Sequence record: PP445229.1
Direction: 5' to 3' (one strand)
From: Escherichia phage EC.W2-6
Length of the DNA stretch: 64,000 bases
Made by a program: the position numbers and the translations under genes. The notes beneath the pieces were generated by a model that did not search any database, was not told the origin of the DNA, and saw only the letters and a program-made list of their open reading frames with translations. This document shows positions 11,364 to 46,341 of the stretch, one piece after another; within the stretch, counting starts at the first letter, position 1; each line of letters opens with the position of its first letter.

Positions 11364-11535
11364 ATGTGAAGGAACAAACCTTCATTTAAGTAACAAGGTT
11401 ATCAGAGAGCTTGCCAAAGGCTCTCCAACCAAAGGGAAGAACAAACGATTTACTAACGTCAGGGTTTATACAGCAATCTGCAAAGACTGCTTAACTACTG
11501 AGTGTCATTACGAAGAAATTGGAGAGCGTAAATGA
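11350..11535 (+). CDS. small zinc-ribbon protein (61 aa)
   Basis: CSRC ... CKDC pairs. Confidence 0.4.
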   Translation: MKCSRCEGTNLHLSNKVIRELAKGSPTKGKNKRFTNVRVYTAICKDCLTTECHYEEIGERK

Positions 11536-12269
11536 GTCGTCGTCAATCACGGAAAGAATCACGGAAAGACCTTCGTCGAGAAGCACTTGTTACTCGTAAG
11601 GGTAAGCGAGAGTATGAAGAGGTGGTTTTAGCAAAGCCTGTAGTCCCTCAGAACCAGTTTCAGTCTGAGCTACTCAATGCTATTAAGACTAAACAAGTTG
11701 TGTTCACAGACGCTCCTGCGGGCTGTGGTAAGACCTTTGTAATCACTTCCACGGTTATTGATGCACTGAAGAGTGGTAAGATTCAGAAGATCATCCTGAG
11801 TCGACCTTCAGTTGGCATGGGTAACTCTCTTGGGTTACTTCCGGGAGGAATGCGTGAGAAGTTTGAACCATACCTGATGCCTATCATTGATGTTATTACT
11901 CAGCGATACGGTAAGGGATTCTATGAATGCCAAATCGGAAATGGTAACATTGAATTTGTACCTCTGGAATATCTCCGTGGTCGCTCTTTCAACGATGCCA
12001 TTGTTATCGTAGATGAGTTCCAGAACACAACTAAGGATGAAGCCTTCTCCATCATGACTCGATTGGGAGAAACCTCTCAATTGTTCTGTATGGGTGATAC
12101 AAACCAGCATGATATGCGTGGTCGCGAGAGTGGTCTAACTTGGGCTACTAACTTTATTGATGAACACGATCTGTATGAGTTTGCTGAGATTGTAGATGGT
12201 GAATCAGATGATATTGTTCGTTCTGGTTTCTGTAAGGCGATTGTTAAAGCAATGGAAAAGAAAGCTTAA
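11532..12269 (+). CDS. phoH: PhoH-like ATPase
   Basis: Walker A DAPAGCGKTF, Walker B IVIVDEFQN and PhoH-type GDTNQHD motif. Confidence 0.8.
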   Translation: MSRRQSRKESRKDLRREALVTRKGKREYEEVVLAKPVVPQNQFQSELLNAIKTKQVVFTDAPAGCGKTFVITSTVIDALKSGKIQKIILSRPSVGMGNSLGLLPGGMREKFEPYLMPIIDVITQRYGKGFYECQIGNGNIEFVPLEYLRGRSFNDAIVIVDEFQNTTKDEAFSIMTRLGETSQLFCMGDTNQHDMRGRESGLTWATNFIDEHDLYEFAEIVDGESDDIVRSGFCKAIVKAMEKKA

Positions 12270-12280
12270 ACAGTAACTTA

Positions 12281-12289
12281 TAATGTATA
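12281..12289 (+). promoter_or_regulatory. TAATGTATA element (candidate phage-sigma-dependent promoter)
   Basis: Exact 9-mer about 37 nt upstream of the 12326 start codon. Confidence 0.45.
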
Positions 12290-12325
12290 CTCCTTAGTGT
12301 ACACTGATATATTAAGGAGTTTTAA

Positions 12326-12643
12326 ATGGCAGATCATGTAGGAAAGAGAGATTATGCACAAGAAAGACGTACCGCAATTGCCCGTGGTGAGACAGGCGTT
12401 GGGAGCAAGAGCGGAGATGCTCAGCGCCACCGTGCACGTCGCATCGTTGAAAAGCGCGATGGAAAAGCTGCTGTCAGAGGTAAAGACGTTGGACACAAAC
12501 GAGCTGTCAAGTCTGGAGGCTCTAATGCGTCAAGCAACTTACGTGTTGAATCAGTCAGCTCAAACCGTTCAAACGGCGGCAAAAGTGGTGATCGAGCTGG
12601 AAAAGCAAACGGAGCTAGGAAGGGGGCGTTGAGTGGTTCTTGA
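12326..12643 (+). CDS. basic Gly/Arg/Lys-rich low-complexity protein (KGG-repeat-like)
   Basis: AAGGAG Shine-Dalgarno 8 nt upstream; T/A-ending codon preference like the rest of the phage; TAATGTATA element about 37 nt upstream. Confidence 0.5.
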   Translation: MADHVGKRDYAQERRTAIARGETGVGSKSGDAQRHRARRIVEKRDGKAAVRGKDVGHKRAVKSGGSNASSNLRVESVSSNRSNGGKSGDRAGKANGARKGALSGS

Positions 12644-13124
12644 TGACACCTTATCTTACGATGCGGTCACAGGTAACCTATATTACACAAAATCTCCTAG
12701 CAAAGGAGTGATGTGGAACAAAAGCCACCCCGGAAAGATAGCTGGATGTATGATATCGAAAGGCTATATCGGTGTGTATTTCCAAGGAAGACGATGGAGA
12801 GCGCACCGACTTATAGCTACGCACTTTATACCAAACCCTAACAATTATCCAGAAGTCAACCACATCAATGGGATAAAAGACGATAATCGACTGGAGAATC
12901 TTGAATGGGTATCCGCTTCTGAAAACATACAACATTCCTTTGATACAGGGTTGAATAAAGGGCACACTCGTGACAATAACGGAATGACCAAATTATCCTC
13001 TGGAGATGTTGTAAAGATTAAACAGATGTATGTGAAGGGTTCTAGGGATTTTGGCTCTAGAGGTCTTGGTAAGTTGTTTGGCGTGAGCCATACAGCTATA
13101 CTCCATGCTTTAAAGGAGCTTTAA
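12633..13124 (+). CDS. HNH-family homing endonuclease
   Basis: HFIPNPNNYPEVNHINGIKDDNRLENLEWVS is the classic HNH (HNH_3) core; C-terminal helix-turn-helix-like tail; GTG start overlapping upstream stop. Confidence 0.75.
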   Translation: MVLDDTLSYDAVTGNLYYTKSPSKGVMWNKSHPGKIAGCMISKGYIGVYFQGRRWRAHRLIATHFIPNPNNYPEVNHINGIKDDNRLENLEWVSASENIQHSFDTGLNKGHTRDNNGMTKLSSGDVVKIKQMYVKGSRDFGSRGLGKLFGVSHTAILHALKEL

Positions 13125-13140
13125 GCTCATCGTAATATGA

Positions 13141-13169
13141 GGCTACCCAAATGGGTGGCCTTTTCTTTC
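13141..13169 (+). terminator. rho-independent terminator
   Basis: GGCTACCC-AAAT-GGGTGGCC hairpin followed by TTTTCTTTC. Confidence 0.6.
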
Positions 13170-13203
13170 ATATAAACCAAAATAAACTTCTTAGGTAATA
13201 AAT

Positions 13204-13458
13204 ATGTCTATTGTAAAAATCGTAAATATTTTTGATGTAACCAGAGATGGCAAGATTGTTAAGTGGACTTTCACTAACCACCACAACAAATCAAACAAGA
13301 TCATCGAACGGATGATTGAGATTAACCCAAAAACAGCTCGCACTAACGTACTCCTTCGAGGAGCTGATGGAAAATTTATCTCTTATAAGAATAAGAACGT
13401 AGAAAAATCTTTCCGTGTTGCAGTAGAAAATCTCATCCCATTCCCTAAAGGAGTTTAA
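13204..13458 (+). CDS. small protein, paralog 1 of a tandem pair
   Basis: Shares KTARTNVLLRGADGKFISY ... AVENLIPFPKG with the next ORF. Confidence 0.55.
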   Translation: MSIVKIVNIFDVTRDGKIVKWTFTNHHNKSNKIIERMIEINPKTARTNVLLRGADGKFISYKNKNVEKSFRVAVENLIPFPKGV

Positions 13459-13459
13459 T

Positions 13460-13744
13460 ATGAATAAGTTAGCTATGGTTCAGATTCGAGACACATACCC
13501 TAACCGCCCGGAGCAGAAACCGCGTACTTGGTCTTATCTGTTGGCTGAAAGTAAGACTATTGACAAATACGCTGTAGGGATTGATGCTATTCCAAATAGT
13601 GTCACATTACTCCCTCACAAAACAGCCAGAACTAATGTAATGTTACGTGATAGCAAAGGTAAGTTTATCTCTTATCGTGATTCAAGAATCAATAATGAAA
13701 TTAAATCTGCTGTGGAATTTTTGATGCCATTCCCAAGAGGTTGA
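13460..13744 (+). CDS. small protein, paralog 2 of a tandem pair
   Basis: KTARTNVMLRDSKGKFISY ... AVEFLMPFPRG. Confidence 0.55.
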   Translation: MNKLAMVQIRDTYPNRPEQKPRTWSYLLAESKTIDKYAVGIDAIPNSVTLLPHKTARTNVMLRDSKGKFISYRDSRINNEIKSAVEFLMPFPRG

Positions 13745-13747
13745 GTT

Positions 13748-13906
13748 ATGAAAGAGTATATTTACGTTGGTCAGCGGTGGTTCGGTGATGAATGGGAAGG
13801 TGGATACAGCGTTGTGAAAGCTTTTAAGTCTGAAGAAGATGCCAAGGCATGGGTCTTAAAAGATGACGTTGGCGAGAGAACTTACATTGAAGTAGAGGTG
13901 GAGTAG
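13748..13906 (+). CDS. small hypothetical protein (52 aa)
   Basis: Not in track; tightly packed between flanking genes. Confidence 0.3.
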   Translation: MKEYIYVGQRWFGDEWEGGYSVVKAFKSEEDAKAWVLKDDVGERTYIEVEVE

Positions 13907-13907
13907 A

Positions 13908-14330
13908 ATGCCATTACCAGCTAGACACCAAAACCGTTTCTTAGTTCTTAAGTGGGATGATATCGAAATGAATCTCACTGAACATGAACTTGATTTGTTC
14001 CATGAACTACTGTCAGAGATTCGCTCTGGTATCCCTGAACGTCAGTATGTGGTTATCAGTGATAAGCACCCTCAAGAGTTTGAAGAAGCTTGGGGTATGA
14101 AGTTGGCTTACATTCAGAGAGCTATCCGAGAAAGAGAAGAAGTCGCTAACCAAAGGGTTGTGGCTCATTTAGTACGAGAGCAACCTCGTGAAGCTAGGGC
14201 TAACCATGCACCACCTCCACCTACTCCTCGGATAGTTGTTAACGGGGCGGTTAGGGCTTACAGTTATGAAGCTACCGCGTTAGATGTGATAGAAGATAAC
14301 CAAGCATTTACAGATTTACTTTACCAATAA
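13908..14330 (+). CDS. hypothetical protein (140 aa)
   Basis: ORF immediately upstream of DNA polymerase catalytic gene. Confidence 0.5.
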   Translation: MPLPARHQNRFLVLKWDDIEMNLTEHELDLFHELLSEIRSGIPERQYVVISDKHPQEFEEAWGMKLAYIQRAIREREEVANQRVVAHLVREQPREARANHAPPPPTPRIVVNGAVRAYSYEATALDVIEDNQAFTDLLYQ

Positions 14331-14346
14331 TTTAAAGGAGTATAAA

Positions 14347-16191
14347 GTGAGCAACCCGGACGCTCTTCCATTTTTGACAGAGATGACTGTCGCTGATATA
14401 ATCTCTAAGCAAGCAAAGCACGGAGTTAGTTTCAACCGAAGAAATGCTCGGTGGTATGTTCACCTCCTTAAAGAGATTATTGTTAATATTGACAGAGAGT
14501 TGATTCCTCTCTTACCTAAGATGAGATTAGATGGCTCTACTTATATGAAGCCGTTTAAGAAGTCTGGAGCTTTACAGAAGTGGCCTCAAGCTTATTGTGA
14601 TAGGGTTGGGCTGAAAAGAGAAGACATTGGTGGAGCATTCACCTGTGTCGAATATGTAGACTTTGATCCATCGAAAGATGCACGAGTTAAAGAAGCTCTT
14701 ATGGATGAGGGCTTTCTTCCTCCAGAGTTTAACGTATCTAAGAAGCCTTGGAATACTTTCGAAATTAAGAAAGATATGAGAAAGTATGGAACATACCAAG
14801 CATGGTATACTGCTTGGATGCGAGGTAATGCTAAACAGAAGCAGACAGCCGAGATGGTTGACGCTGATATTAGAAAGTTCTTAGAGAAGCATTTTCGGTT
14901 TAAAACTAAGAACTACATGAAGGCTTACGTATTTGGTTTGGGATTAAACCCTAATCGCCGTAATCCTGTAACGTTTGATGAGATTAAGAAAGCACTAGCC
15001 ACATCAAACAAGTGGCCTACAGCTCCTACAAACCTCGAGGAGACTCTTGAAGAAGGGTTAGGGGGTGAGCTAGGGAGTGTCGGAAGTTTGCTTAAGAGAC
15101 GCGTTGTGGCGGCTCACAGGCTAGGTCTTATCAGTGGACTCATAGCAAAGGAACGCGAAGATGGTAAACTTTCGGCAGAAGCTAACAGCTGCGCTACGCC
15201 GACTTTTCGATTCAAACATCGTATCGTGGTTAATATTCCCTCCCGTGGTCTGTTTGGTCACGAGTGTCGCAGTTTGTTTGAGTCTGACTATAACTCAGAC
15301 AGTGATCACTCTCGTCCTTTCGTTATTACTAACGTTGTTCCTGATGGTTGTTATATACGAAAAGGTACTAACGTAATTTACGAGAAAGGTAAGCCGGGGA
15401 AGAAAGACAAACCTGTAGGCGCTTACAAATATTACATACCCACTGGTAAAGAAGTATTCTTAGGGTATGATGGTTCTGGACTGGAACTTCGTATGCTCGC
15501 TCACTACCTCATTAAAGAGTGTAGGGATATGCTTGCTGAGGCAATTGAAGAGAACAACCCAGCTAAGAAAGCTCTGGCAGAACGTGGTTTAGCTTCTGCT
15601 ATTATGTATCGTGATATTCTCCTTGAAGGTGATATCCACTCCCACAACCAGAAACTTGCTGGTCTTCCTACTCGTGACAACGCTAAGACATTTATCTATG
15701 CATTCAACTACGGTGCTGGCGATGCTAAGCTTGGTTCAATTGTAGGTGGTGGGGCTGACGAAGGTTCAGTGATGCGAGCACGTTTCTTAGCAGAGAACCC
15801 ATGTATTGCAATCCTCATTGATCGTATGACAGAGAAAGCTGCTCAAGGATACTTGATTGGAGTTGATGGTCGTAAGATTACAATGAGACGGGATGCCACT
15901 GGTAAGGTTATGGTTCATAAAGCCCTTAACACACTCCTGCAATGTGCTGGTGCTGTTGTTATGAAATATGCTATGATGTTCCTTAACAAGTGGATTGAGA
16001 AAGATAAGGTTCGTTGTGCTAAGGTAATTGATATGCACGATGAAGGTCAATTCTCAGTAAACCGTAATGATGTACAGAAACTCAAAGAGCACACTGAGCT
16101 TTGTGTTAAGAAAGCTGGCGAGTATCTGAACATGGAATGTCCTCTGGCATCTGATTGTCAGATTGGACTTAACTGGATGCATACACACTAA
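14347..16191 (+). CDS. DNA polymerase I family (T7 gp5-like), polymerase domain; C-terminal part of split polymerase
   Basis: GYDGSGLELRMLAHY (motif A), LPTRDNAKTFIYAFNYGAGDAKLG (motif B), VIDMHDEGQF (motif C); AAAGGAG Shine-Dalgarno before GTG start. Confidence 0.85.
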   Translation: MSNPDALPFLTEMTVADIISKQAKHGVSFNRRNARWYVHLLKEIIVNIDRELIPLLPKMRLDGSTYMKPFKKSGALQKWPQAYCDRVGLKREDIGGAFTCVEYVDFDPSKDARVKEALMDEGFLPPEFNVSKKPWNTFEIKKDMRKYGTYQAWYTAWMRGNAKQKQTAEMVDADIRKFLEKHFRFKTKNYMKAYVFGLGLNPNRRNPVTFDEIKKALATSNKWPTAPTNLEETLEEGLGGELGSVGSLLKRRVVAAHRLGLISGLIAKEREDGKLSAEANSCATPTFRFKHRIVVNIPSRGLFGHECRSLFESDYNSDSDHSRPFVITNVVPDGCYIRKGTNVIYEKGKPGKKDKPVGAYKYYIPTGKEVFLGYDGSGLELRMLAHYLIKECRDMLAEAIEENNPAKKALAERGLASAIMYRDILLEGDIHSHNQKLAGLPTRDNAKTFIYAFNYGAGDAKLGSIVGGGADEGSVMRARFLAENPCIAILIDRMTEKAAQGYLIGVDGRKITMRRDATGKVMVHKALNTLLQCAGAVVMKYAMMFLNKWIEKDKVRCAKVIDMHDEGQFSVNRNDVQKLKEHTELCVKKAGEYLNMECPLASDCQIGLNWMHTH

Positions 16192-18845: not shown

Positions 18846-19323
18846 AGAACCTGTAGTACATAAAGATTCTATCAGAGATCAATATAATGAGATGTTAAAG
18901 AAACAAGCTGATTCTAATCTTCGTTATCAGAGGATAGTAGAACAATCTAACTTTAAAGGTTTACTTGAATGGTAACTTATATCCTTTACTTTTTAGCTTT
19001 CTTAGGAATAGTCTTTTTATCTATTCTTATTGAATTTGGTTTAAGTAAGTTAGTTAATTATTTAGGTAATAAGTAATTAATATTCTTTTAAATAGAGAAT
19101 CAAAGTCCCTAGGAGTCCCTACAACCTAAATCAAGGATTCCTTAATTCTCTATTTTTATCTCGCAGGTGGCTCCTGCCCTTCGGTACTTGCAAGGGATTC
19201 TGTGAATTGCCCAATATACAAGCCTGCAATAACTTTATCAGCTATACAATATATACATTACTAGTGTGATATATCTACTACCAAAGATACTTATATTATA
19301 TAGTACTCTTATCGGTATAAGCG

Positions 19324-19332
19324 TAATGTATA
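19324..19332 (+). promoter_or_regulatory. TAATGTATA element (candidate phage-sigma-dependent promoter)
   Basis: Exact 9-mer about 60 nt upstream of the putative SSB gene; mirrored by an inverted copy at about 19255. Confidence 0.45.
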
Positions 19333-46332: not shown

Positions 46333-46341
46333 TATACATTA
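46333..46341 (-). promoter_or_regulatory. TAATGTATA element on minus strand (candidate phage-sigma-dependent late promoter)
   Basis: Exact 9-mer about 34 nt upstream of the 46299 start, just after the capsid terminator. Confidence 0.45.

Follow-up and report, generated by a model that had tools for sequence, protein, structure and literature searches.

The window analysed here, a 64,000-nt stretch of Escherichia phage EC.W2-6 (PP445229.1), carries on its + strand, in this order, a PhoH gene, a spacer, a 105-aa open reading frame (ORF), an HNH endonuclease ORF, a hairpin terminator, two paralogous small genes and a DNA polymerase ORF (Table 1). This report concerns the segment from the spacer to the terminator, and above all the relation between the 105-aa gene, a homologue of phiEco32 gp58 and of SU10 CDS56 that falls into phrog_4590 (function unknown), and the endonuclease gene that follows it. 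Over bases 11500-14400 the window shows 100% identity with Escherichia phage EC.W8-1 (PQ030848.1), a Kuravirus of the Gordonclarkvirinae and thus of the phiEco32 group. A preliminary description, made from the sequence alone, had taken 12270-13124 for a mobile endonuclease cassette; all the features it listed, i.e., the GC-rich segment, the 105-aa ORF with its Shine-Dalgarno (SD) sequence, the TAATGTATA element, the HNH ORF, the terminator and an overlapping 92-aa ORF, are indeed present where it had placed them. For comparison, 98 related records matching the stretch 11500-14400 were used; the 105-aa gene was aligned from 13 relatives, and the junctions were read in 16 loci, comprising nine alleles occupied by the endonuclease gene and seven loci without it.

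Table 1. Coordinates of the genes and other features at the locus (positions in the window)
Feature	Position	Strand	Remarks
PhoH gene	11532-12269	+	
Spacer between PhoH and the 105-aa ORF	56 nt	+	
TAATGTATA, gp36-type sigma promoter element	12281-12289	+	exact match to published consensus
13-bp hairpin (inverted repeat)	arms 12289-12301 and 12308-12320	+	anti-SD ACUCCUU pairs with AAGGAG 12314-12319
105-aa gene, phiEco32 gp58 homologue, phrog_4590	12326-12643	+	ATG start; AAGGAG 12314-12319, 6 nt before ATG
92-aa ORF, not a gene	12354-12632	+ (+1 frame)	GC content at third codon positions (GC3) 0.62 vs 0.33-0.40 for phage genes
Invariant stretch, 47 nt	12407-12453	+	nt 82-128 of the 105-aa gene
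Recoded version of the 12 final codons of the 105-aa gene	12608-12643	+	AAC GGA GCT AGG AAG GGG GCG TTG AGT GGT TCT TGA
HNH_3 (I-HmuI-type) freestanding endonuclease gene	12633-13124	+	163 aa, intact; GTG start; assigned by Pfam and PHROG
Displaced native 3' end of the 105-aa gene	13112-13135	+	AAAGGAGCTTTAAGCTCATCGTAA, coding for KGALSSS and a stop codon; follows the endonuclease gene
Intrinsic terminator	13139-13172	+	10-bp GC-rich stem 13139-13162, then T-run
DNA polymerase ORF	14347-16191	+	after two paralogous small genes

The endonuclease ORF matches Pfam HNH_3 with E=3.1e-10 (40 bits, the threshold being 24.8) and phrog_59 with E=1e-32, and its product keeps His77, Asn89 and Asn98/His101 as well as all 27 columns that are invariant among eight homologues; the public record already labels the gene "HNH homing endonuclease". 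With regard to a DNA-binding module, the C-terminal match to HTH_50 is weak (E=0.09), although the conserved C-terminus GxRGLGKxFGVSHTAI looks like a helix-turn-helix, and NUMOD4, which is found in remote homologues, was not detected in the protein by Pfam. Close protein homologues (62-99% identity) reside on kuravirus-sized or shorter contigs, and the next-best ones, with at most 52% identity, combine NUMOD4 with HNH_3. DNA of the gene occurs in 16 of the 98 related records, which represent 13 phages, always at the same site and in three allele groups: group A with at least 95% nt identity (EC.W8-1, EC.W14-3, SGF2, SR02), group B with about 79% (YF01, YW01, EcoN5) and group C with about 68% (4E8, Bas89, EK010, TH34, TH42, E20-1). 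The proposal that a freestanding HNH homing endonuclease has inserted here is borne out, and most relatives lack the gene.

The extent of the insertion could be read directly from the alleles. The variable unit spans only about 504 bp (approximately 12608-13111) and replaces 12 nt of native sequence, so that the 12270-13124 interval does not stand as a mobile unit, its promoter, 5' untranslated region (5'UTR), 105-aa gene and terminator being resident. In phiEco32 and KM01, the native gp58 end reads GCT GGA GCA CGC AAA GGA GCT TTA AGC TCA TCG TAA and is followed by the terminator, and the empty ends of 172-1, KBNP1711 and EP335 are minor variants thereof. The tail found in the window differs from this native end in 11 of the 12 codons and encodes nearly the same peptide, NGARKGALSGS versus AGARKGALSSS; the 280 nt of gp58 that precede it are 98.6-100% identical among the close (Kuravirus) relatives. 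Recoding of the tail goes together with the endonuclease: in none of the nine occupied alleles examined are the native codons TTA AGC TCA for Leu-Ser-Ser retained, whereas all seven loci without the gene keep GCT TTA AGC TCA (TCT in EP335). At the right junction, the stop codon of the endonuclease gene (TAA, 13122-13124) falls within the displaced AAAGGAGCTTTAAGCTCATCGTAA, a remnant identical to the gene end of the endonuclease-free phages 172-1 and KM01 and matched by phiEco32 over the 24 nt of 13112-13135, with the first difference just downstream. In the group C alleles the endonuclease ORF continues in frame into the native ...ALSSS and its stop codon, and the downstream remnant is in each lineage that lineage's own native gene end. 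The recoded left flank accompanying the endonuclease extends over 36 nt in the group A alleles, over about 12 nt in those of group B and over 30 nt or more in those of group C. The flank AGG AAG GGG GCG is common to groups A and C despite backgrounds that diverge by about 15%, a pattern that fits a short co-converted tract.

We consider it probable that the region consists of a resident single-gene transcription unit, in which the gp58-like gene with its 5'UTR lies between a gp36-sigma promoter and an intrinsic terminator, and into which a promoter-less freestanding HNH_3 homing endonuclease gene was inserted. The transcription signals agree with this arrangement. The GTG start of the endonuclease at 12633 overlaps the stop of the gp58 gene by 11 nt, the corresponding start/stop overlaps in groups B and C being (A/G)TGA, and an SD-like AAGGGGG at 12620-12626, within the recoded tail, precedes it. 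Since the start overlaps the gp58 stop and no promoter-like element was found between the two genes, the endonuclease gene is a promoter-less second cistron. The TAATGTATA element occurs in five exact copies in the window, compared with 0.68 expected, and only one of 100 shuffles reached five. The published consensus for promoters read by the phage sigma factor gp36 is tAATGTAtA, a single element from which transcription starts 6-8 bp downstream (PMC8948821), and the element has also been given as AATGTA (PMC12276001). In SU10 such a promoter was located between CDS56 and CDS57, the homologues of the 105-aa gene and PhoH, respectively (PMC4281155); this is the same spacer that harbours TAATGTATA in the window. 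Moreover, 12 of 13 loci, with or without the endonuclease, agree in every position of the 50 nt between ATAATGTATA and the start codon, the exception being ES17, where other genes are inserted upstream. By consensus and position, TAATGTATA at 12281-12289 would be the phiEco32 gp36-dependent middle/late promoter of the resident 105-aa gene and not that of the endonuclease. The terminator, which folds with -17.9 kcal/mol (z=-4.17, none of 200 shuffles as good), adjoins the end of the 105-aa gene directly in endonuclease-free relatives, is common to occupied and empty alleles, and is likewise part of the resident unit. The endonuclease can hence be called wired into the phage transcription programme, as had been suggested, in that it is expressed through the phage's own signals; a promoter of its own, as the preliminary description had it, it does not possess.

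The 105-aa gene is retained far beyond the carriers of the endonuclease. All 98 related records contain DNA matching it, and each of the 16 relatives examined has an intact homologue; the gene has also been listed as common to all five sequenced C3-morphotype phages (PMC4281155). Homologues with 55-88% identity occur across very different phages, with genomes of 45 kb, about 90 kb (including Salmonella phage 7-11) and about 108 kb. The local GC richness, which had been read as a sign of foreign DNA, has another cause. GC content amounts to 0.48-0.53 in 200-nt windows over 12300-12699, compared with 0.421 for the whole window, yet GC3 of the 105-aa frame is 0.358, within the 0.33-0.40 of the neighbouring phage genes, and the first and second codon positions account for the excess (0.61 and 0.585, respectively), the encoded protein being rich in Gly, Arg and Ala (17 Gly, 15 Arg, 14 Ala, 13 Ser, 10 Lys and no cysteine). 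Phage-like GC3 together with the presence across all relatives rules out a foreign origin of this gene. The inserted endonuclease gene, for its part, has a GC content of 0.417, equal to that of the window.

A 13-bp hairpin connects the promoter with the ribosome-binding site of gp58. Its free energy is -14.7 kcal/mol (z=-4.16, none of 200 shuffles as good), and the transcription start predicted from the published distance to TAATGTATA, at 12295-12297, lies within its 5' arm. The predicted probability that the gp58 SD is unpaired is 0.00 in RNA reading through from PhoH, versus 0.64 in RNA that starts 6 nt past TAATGTATA. On the basis of this folding model, we infer that the hairpin at 12289-12320 would mask the gp58 ribosome-binding site in read-through RNA only, leaving the RNA from the TAATGTATA promoter alone translatable; the endonuclease, being presumably coupled to gp58, is predicted to inherit this control. 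In the distant loci L019 and L020 the anti-SD is retained upstream of a promoter-like motif, with a different geometry. Among the four further TAATGTATA copies in the window, the one at 46341 (-) has the same hairpin design: UUCUUUGU, directly after the motif, pairs with the ribosome-binding site ACAAGGAG upstream of an ATG, and the predicted probability of an unpaired SD is 0.10 in read-through RNA versus 0.70 in promoter-initiated RNA. The design was not seen at the copies 19324 (+) and 29511 (-). Besides, 19252-19332 contains two exact TAATGTATA elements pointing in opposite, outward directions at a distance of 64 nt (19260 -, 19324 +), probably a divergent promoter pair.

From this anatomy a course of events can be proposed. 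The insertion point lies within the last codons of the gp58-like gene, and as the element brings its own synonymously recoded gp58 end, the host protein stays intact. The recoded copy at the same time supplies the SD-like sequence and the GTG start of the endonuclease, and the original gp58 end, shifted downstream, provides the endonuclease stop codon with the terminator kept in place. The endonuclease would be transcribed only as the second cistron of the gp58 mRNA, its translation presumably coupled to that of gp58. Spread may occur in mixed infections, where the enzyme would nick or cut the uninterrupted allele near GCTTTAAGCTCA, and through recombinational repair the recipient would acquire the endonuclease gene and, with it, a recoded left flank of 12-36 nt. 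A contiguous target would be missing from the occupied allele: the presumed target is altered and split by the insertion there, compared with the empty allele, the recognition site itself being a candidate only.

Turning to mobility, the distribution among relatives is patchy, and backgrounds that are almost identical can be occupied or empty. Over gp58 nt 1-280 SU10 does not differ from the window (100% identity), its PhoH is 97.6% identical, and it has the native tail without the endonuclease; SGF2, which has the endonuclease, is only 95.4% identical to the window in PhoH. In 23 of the 98 records this slot is taken by another ORF, of 97 aa, and about 60 records, by subtraction, carry neither; those inspected match contiguously, in a single piece, across the junction. 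Empty alleles cannot have arisen by simple deletion between the two tail copies, since they hold the native codons GCT GGA GCA CGC, which are absent from the 24-nt remnant, and allelic exchange through the flanks is required. The endonuclease copy of SR02 (L003 2634-3125) has an in-frame TGA at codon 117, corresponding to GGA at 12981-12983 in the window, and has lost its C-terminal region; it is probably a decaying copy, as expected for homing elements. The comparison with relatives that the preliminary description had called for came out in two ways, as presence and absence support mobility and the compositional difference it had predicted is lacking.

Several points weigh against a homing element. 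The divergence of the endonuclease (68-99.8% identity) roughly tracks that of the fast-evolving downstream gene (57-98%), and in view of this parallel, long vertical residence with repeated loss is possible. The displaced native tail at 13112-13135 and the downstream flank persist in the occupied genome, and immunity of the occupied allele would depend on the enzyme needing upstream gp58 sequence. The endonuclease gene shows no compositional anomaly, and cleavage and homing are themselves deduced from sequence. The parallel divergence and the lack of a compositional difference would suit an endonuclease gene of long vertical descent that has lost its mobility and is possibly domesticated, with the patchiness stemming from repeated loss and ordinary mosaic recombination; its ORF is, moreover, intact in 12 of the 13 carrier phages. 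We nevertheless regard such a history as rather unlikely, given that backgrounds as near-identical as SU10 and the window differ in occupancy, that the recoded flank moves with the endonuclease across the 15% divergent backgrounds of groups A and C, and that a pseudogenised copy exists in SR02, though none of these observations proves present-day endonuclease activity. A homing endonuclease gene inserted into a resident unit remains the reading we prefer.

We were also interested in what the resident gene encodes. Its description as KGG-like (PF10685) found no backing, as the 105-aa protein gave no match at E<=0.1, and none of 28 family members gave one at E<=1. The consensus of the gp58 family is RDYxQERxTAIxRGETGVGSKSGDAxRHRARR...VDHKKxVKxGGSNxxSNLRVxSxxxNxSDGGK, the second half of which follows the order of an HNH motif, and the 105-aa protein has an HNH-like core with His57, Asn71 and Asn80 followed by a Gly/Lys/Arg tail. 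PF01844 (Pfam HNH) was matched by 21 of 28 gp58 homologues at E<=1 (best 1.9e-4) and HNH_3 by seven of 28 (best E=7.5e-5), whereas the window's own 105-aa protein alone gave no Pfam match. In a library of 1.8 billion proteins, the family profile reached canonical HNH proteins at E=1e-5. Alignment of the family with the HNH_3 alignment by hhalign yielded E=0.0018 at a probability of 15% with the motifs in register, so that His57, Asn71-Leu72 and Asn80 of gp58 correspond to His77, Asn89-Leu90 and Asn98 of the endonuclease. An AlphaFold model (predicted local distance difference test score 63, core about 75) shows a strand-strand-helix arrangement at residues 53-82, and residues 82-105, the Gly/Lys tail, are predicted to be disordered. 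Three further searches gave nothing of use: the family profile found nothing meaningful among solved structures by sequence search, hhalign against the single classical HNH ORF of ES17 was not significant, and the N-terminal parts of four long gp58-family matches, inspected for domain fusions as functional clues, contained no Pfam domain. Judging from these profile and motif matches, the 105-aa protein would belong to the HNH (beta-beta-alpha-metal) superfamily as an HNH-like member. No zinc-binding CxxC pairs, which are found in many but not all HNH proteins, occur in it. The window protein and all Gordonclarkvirinae homologues have Gly56-His57, where most of the wider family has Asp-His or His-His; with Gly in place of the metal-ligand Asp before the catalytic His, catalytic competence of the 105-aa protein is uncertain.

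The gp58 family is small, with 298 representative clusters at E<=1e-3, and its members keep company with replication genes. In the 45-kb phages the DNA polymerase is split, and the gp58-like gene separates its exonuclease part from its polymerase part; in the window phage and in 7-11 the gp58-like gene is found 1.3-1.8 kb upstream of the polymerase gene. In the 45-kb phages (L031 3460-7753 and L029 3481-6984) it directly follows a primase/helicase gene. We read the 105-aa protein as a replication-module protein of unknown role and not as cargo of a mobile element.

The surroundings of gp58 have received other genes as well. In ES17-type phages (ES17, L012 1135-2002), two extra HNH-type ORFs lie between PhoH and the gp58 homologue, replacing the TAATGTATA promoter region; they encode 149 aa (HNH_3, E=4e-5) and 109 aa (a classical CxxC...DH...CxxCH HNH, E=4e-4). 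The 97-aa ORF mentioned above is Cys/His-rich, without a Pfam match, is inserted after ...GCTCA of the gp58 end and brings a variant terminator; it was located at L005 (SU10) 2382-2675, L012 2327-2620 and L003 (SR02) 3144-3437. Since SR02 holds both the endonuclease and the 97-aa ORF, these two insertions are nested. The PhoH-gp58 neighbourhood is a hotspot for endonuclease genes.

One might ask whether the pairing of the resident gene with the endonuclease is functional and not parasitic. I-HmuI-type enzymes are nickases. This established property counts in favour of such a link, as does the fact that gp58 and the endonuclease are both of the HNH superfamily, are co-transcribed and have overlapping stop and start codons. 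The idea appears very improbable, however, in that the resident gene does without the endonuclease in about 80% of the relatives and in unrelated phage groups, and the same neighbourhood takes insertions of other kinds, i.e., the 97-aa ORF and, upstream in ES17, two different HNH genes.

The 92-aa ORF in the +1 frame was correctly described as having G/C-ending codons unlike those of the phage. That it is nonetheless a real overlapping gene, with an invariant 47-nt stretch inside it (12407-12453) reflecting dual coding, might be supposed from the +1 frame being open in all 13 close relatives and from the GenBank record of YW01 (L062 329-613), in which this ORF is annotated in place of the gp58 homologue. 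We find this scarcely credible. Variable columns in the 13 aligned relatives distribute as 25/12/48 over codon positions 1/2/3 of the 105-aa frame, so that 48 of 85 fall on its third position, which is the second position of the +1 frame. GC3 of the ORF is foreign to the phage's genes, no PHROG or Pfam match was found for it, and the +1 frame is broken by 4-7 stops in the distant homologues L023, L025, L032, L037, L039 and L043. A stop-free run of at least 96 codons in this frame arises in 6% of synonymous recodings; +1-frame stops are rare because the 105-aa protein has few codons with T at position 2. The invariance, lastly, is limited to 47 of the 279 nt of the ORF. Substitution pattern, GC3 and the stops in distant homologues thus rule out the 92-aa ORF as a gene, and it is a by-product of the 105-aa frame.

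The 47-nt stretch deserves attention in its own right. Across 13 relatives, whose divergence elsewhere reaches up to 16-20%, it shows zero substitutions, synonymous or other. It is the longest invariant run in gp58; in PhoH (744 nt) the longest such run is 11 nt, and in the initial 260 nt of the DNA polymerase gene 14 nt. Outside the Gordonclarkvirinae the synonymous sites of the stretch vary freely. It contains the palindrome CGTGCACG. No RNA structure signal was detected in it (z about 0), only sub-threshold matches to known RNA families (Rfam) were obtained across 12200-13250, and no repeat of it was found elsewhere in the window. None of these accounts for the invariance.

That promoter, 105-aa gene and HNH gene entered the phage together as one mobile cassette, an idea resting on their contiguity and on the local GC richness of the 105-aa gene, has next to nothing left in its favour, as promoter, 5'UTR and gene are kept in endonuclease-free relatives (the gene in 98/98 records, the promoter region in 12/13 loci), the GC3 of the gene is phage-like (0.358), the gene is shared by all five sequenced C3-morphotype phages (PMC4281155), and it stays upstream of the DNA polymerase gene in distant phages.

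Further downstream, 13204-13458 and 13460-13744 are tandem paralogues of phrog_6814 (function unknown), which evolve fast (57-98% nt identity among relatives). Several records name the first of them "autotransporter adhesin", a label that looks like an annotation error passed on from record to record. In addition, a perfect sigma-70 consensus promoter (TTGACA, 17 nt, TATAAT, extended TG; 12/12 matches) was noticed at 14374-14402, just within the 5' end of the DNA polymerase ORF.

In itself the element is ordinary: freestanding HNH homing endonucleases are well known as mobile elements of phages, though the junction is unusually clean here. The main value of the analysis is one of correction: the mobile unit measures about 0.5 kb and not the whole 0.85-kb "cassette", and the GC-rich gene is a core phage gene and not cargo. 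The junction offers a clear natural example of a selfish endonuclease entering a coding sequence harmlessly. Annotation of kuraviruses, which are in use for phage-therapy work, is affected through the spurious +1 ORF in one public record and through misleading names on neighbouring genes. Going further, we tentatively entertain a composite picture, which seems to us possible though not probable: gp58 might represent an uncharacterised, cysteine-free and strongly conserved mini-HNH family (about 55-60% identity across unrelated phage groups) tied to DNA polymerase genes, whose translation is gated by an anti-SD hairpin within a phage-sigma promoter, with the endonuclease exploiting this gate via coupling and the 47-nt stretch acting as a further signal at the nucleic acid level. 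The mini-HNH family and the promoter-embedded hairpin provide small, testable leads on replication and gene control in phiEco32-type phages.

The mob genes of T-even phages and 'intronless homing' are among the closest known systems. In T4, seven freestanding endonuclease genes have been described as promoter-less and as using upstream promoters (PMC2988022), and the T-even HNH endonucleases mobA-mobE are patchy among close relatives and are likewise promoter-less genes served by an upstream phage promoter (PMC2988022, PMC2790892). Like the element described here, the mob genes, of which mobE has been characterised, are standalone genes between or at the edge of conserved genes, and one of them starts with GUG, as the present endonuclease does with GTG. 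In contrast to them, this element does not sit in an intergenic spacer but within the final codons of its neighbour, for which it brings a recoded tail as replacement; it makes renewed use of the native stop region that it has displaced, and belongs to a different phage family, the Gordonclarkvirinae. With I-HmuI the endonuclease shares the HNH_3 core (PF13392), matched above the Pfam threshold, and both NUMOD4 and PF22083, an I-HmuI-like domain, are present in more remote homologues of it; I-HmuI is intron-encoded, whereas the gene here is freestanding.

The 105-aa protein differs from the small phage HNH nickases (Gme HNH 4h9d, GVE2 HNH 5h0o and the HK97 gp74 class) in several respects. It has no zinc-binding cysteines, carries in this phage group a Gly for the metal-ligand Asp before the catalytic His, and possesses a conserved N-terminal RGETGxGSxSGDAxRHRARR and a disordered basic tail; its gene lies in the replication module and not beside terminase genes. 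As for the hairpin, the T4 genes I-TevI, gene 49, e and soc are under promoter-dependent hairpin control. Such T4 hairpins hide the ribosome-binding site when the transcript is long and reads through, but leave it accessible when transcription begins within the hairpin at a later promoter (PMC2988022). The hairpin at 12289-12320 has the same geometry and is predicted to have the same effect, the T4 hairpins using a T4 late promoter where a gp36 phage-sigma promoter at 12281-12289 would serve in the window phage.

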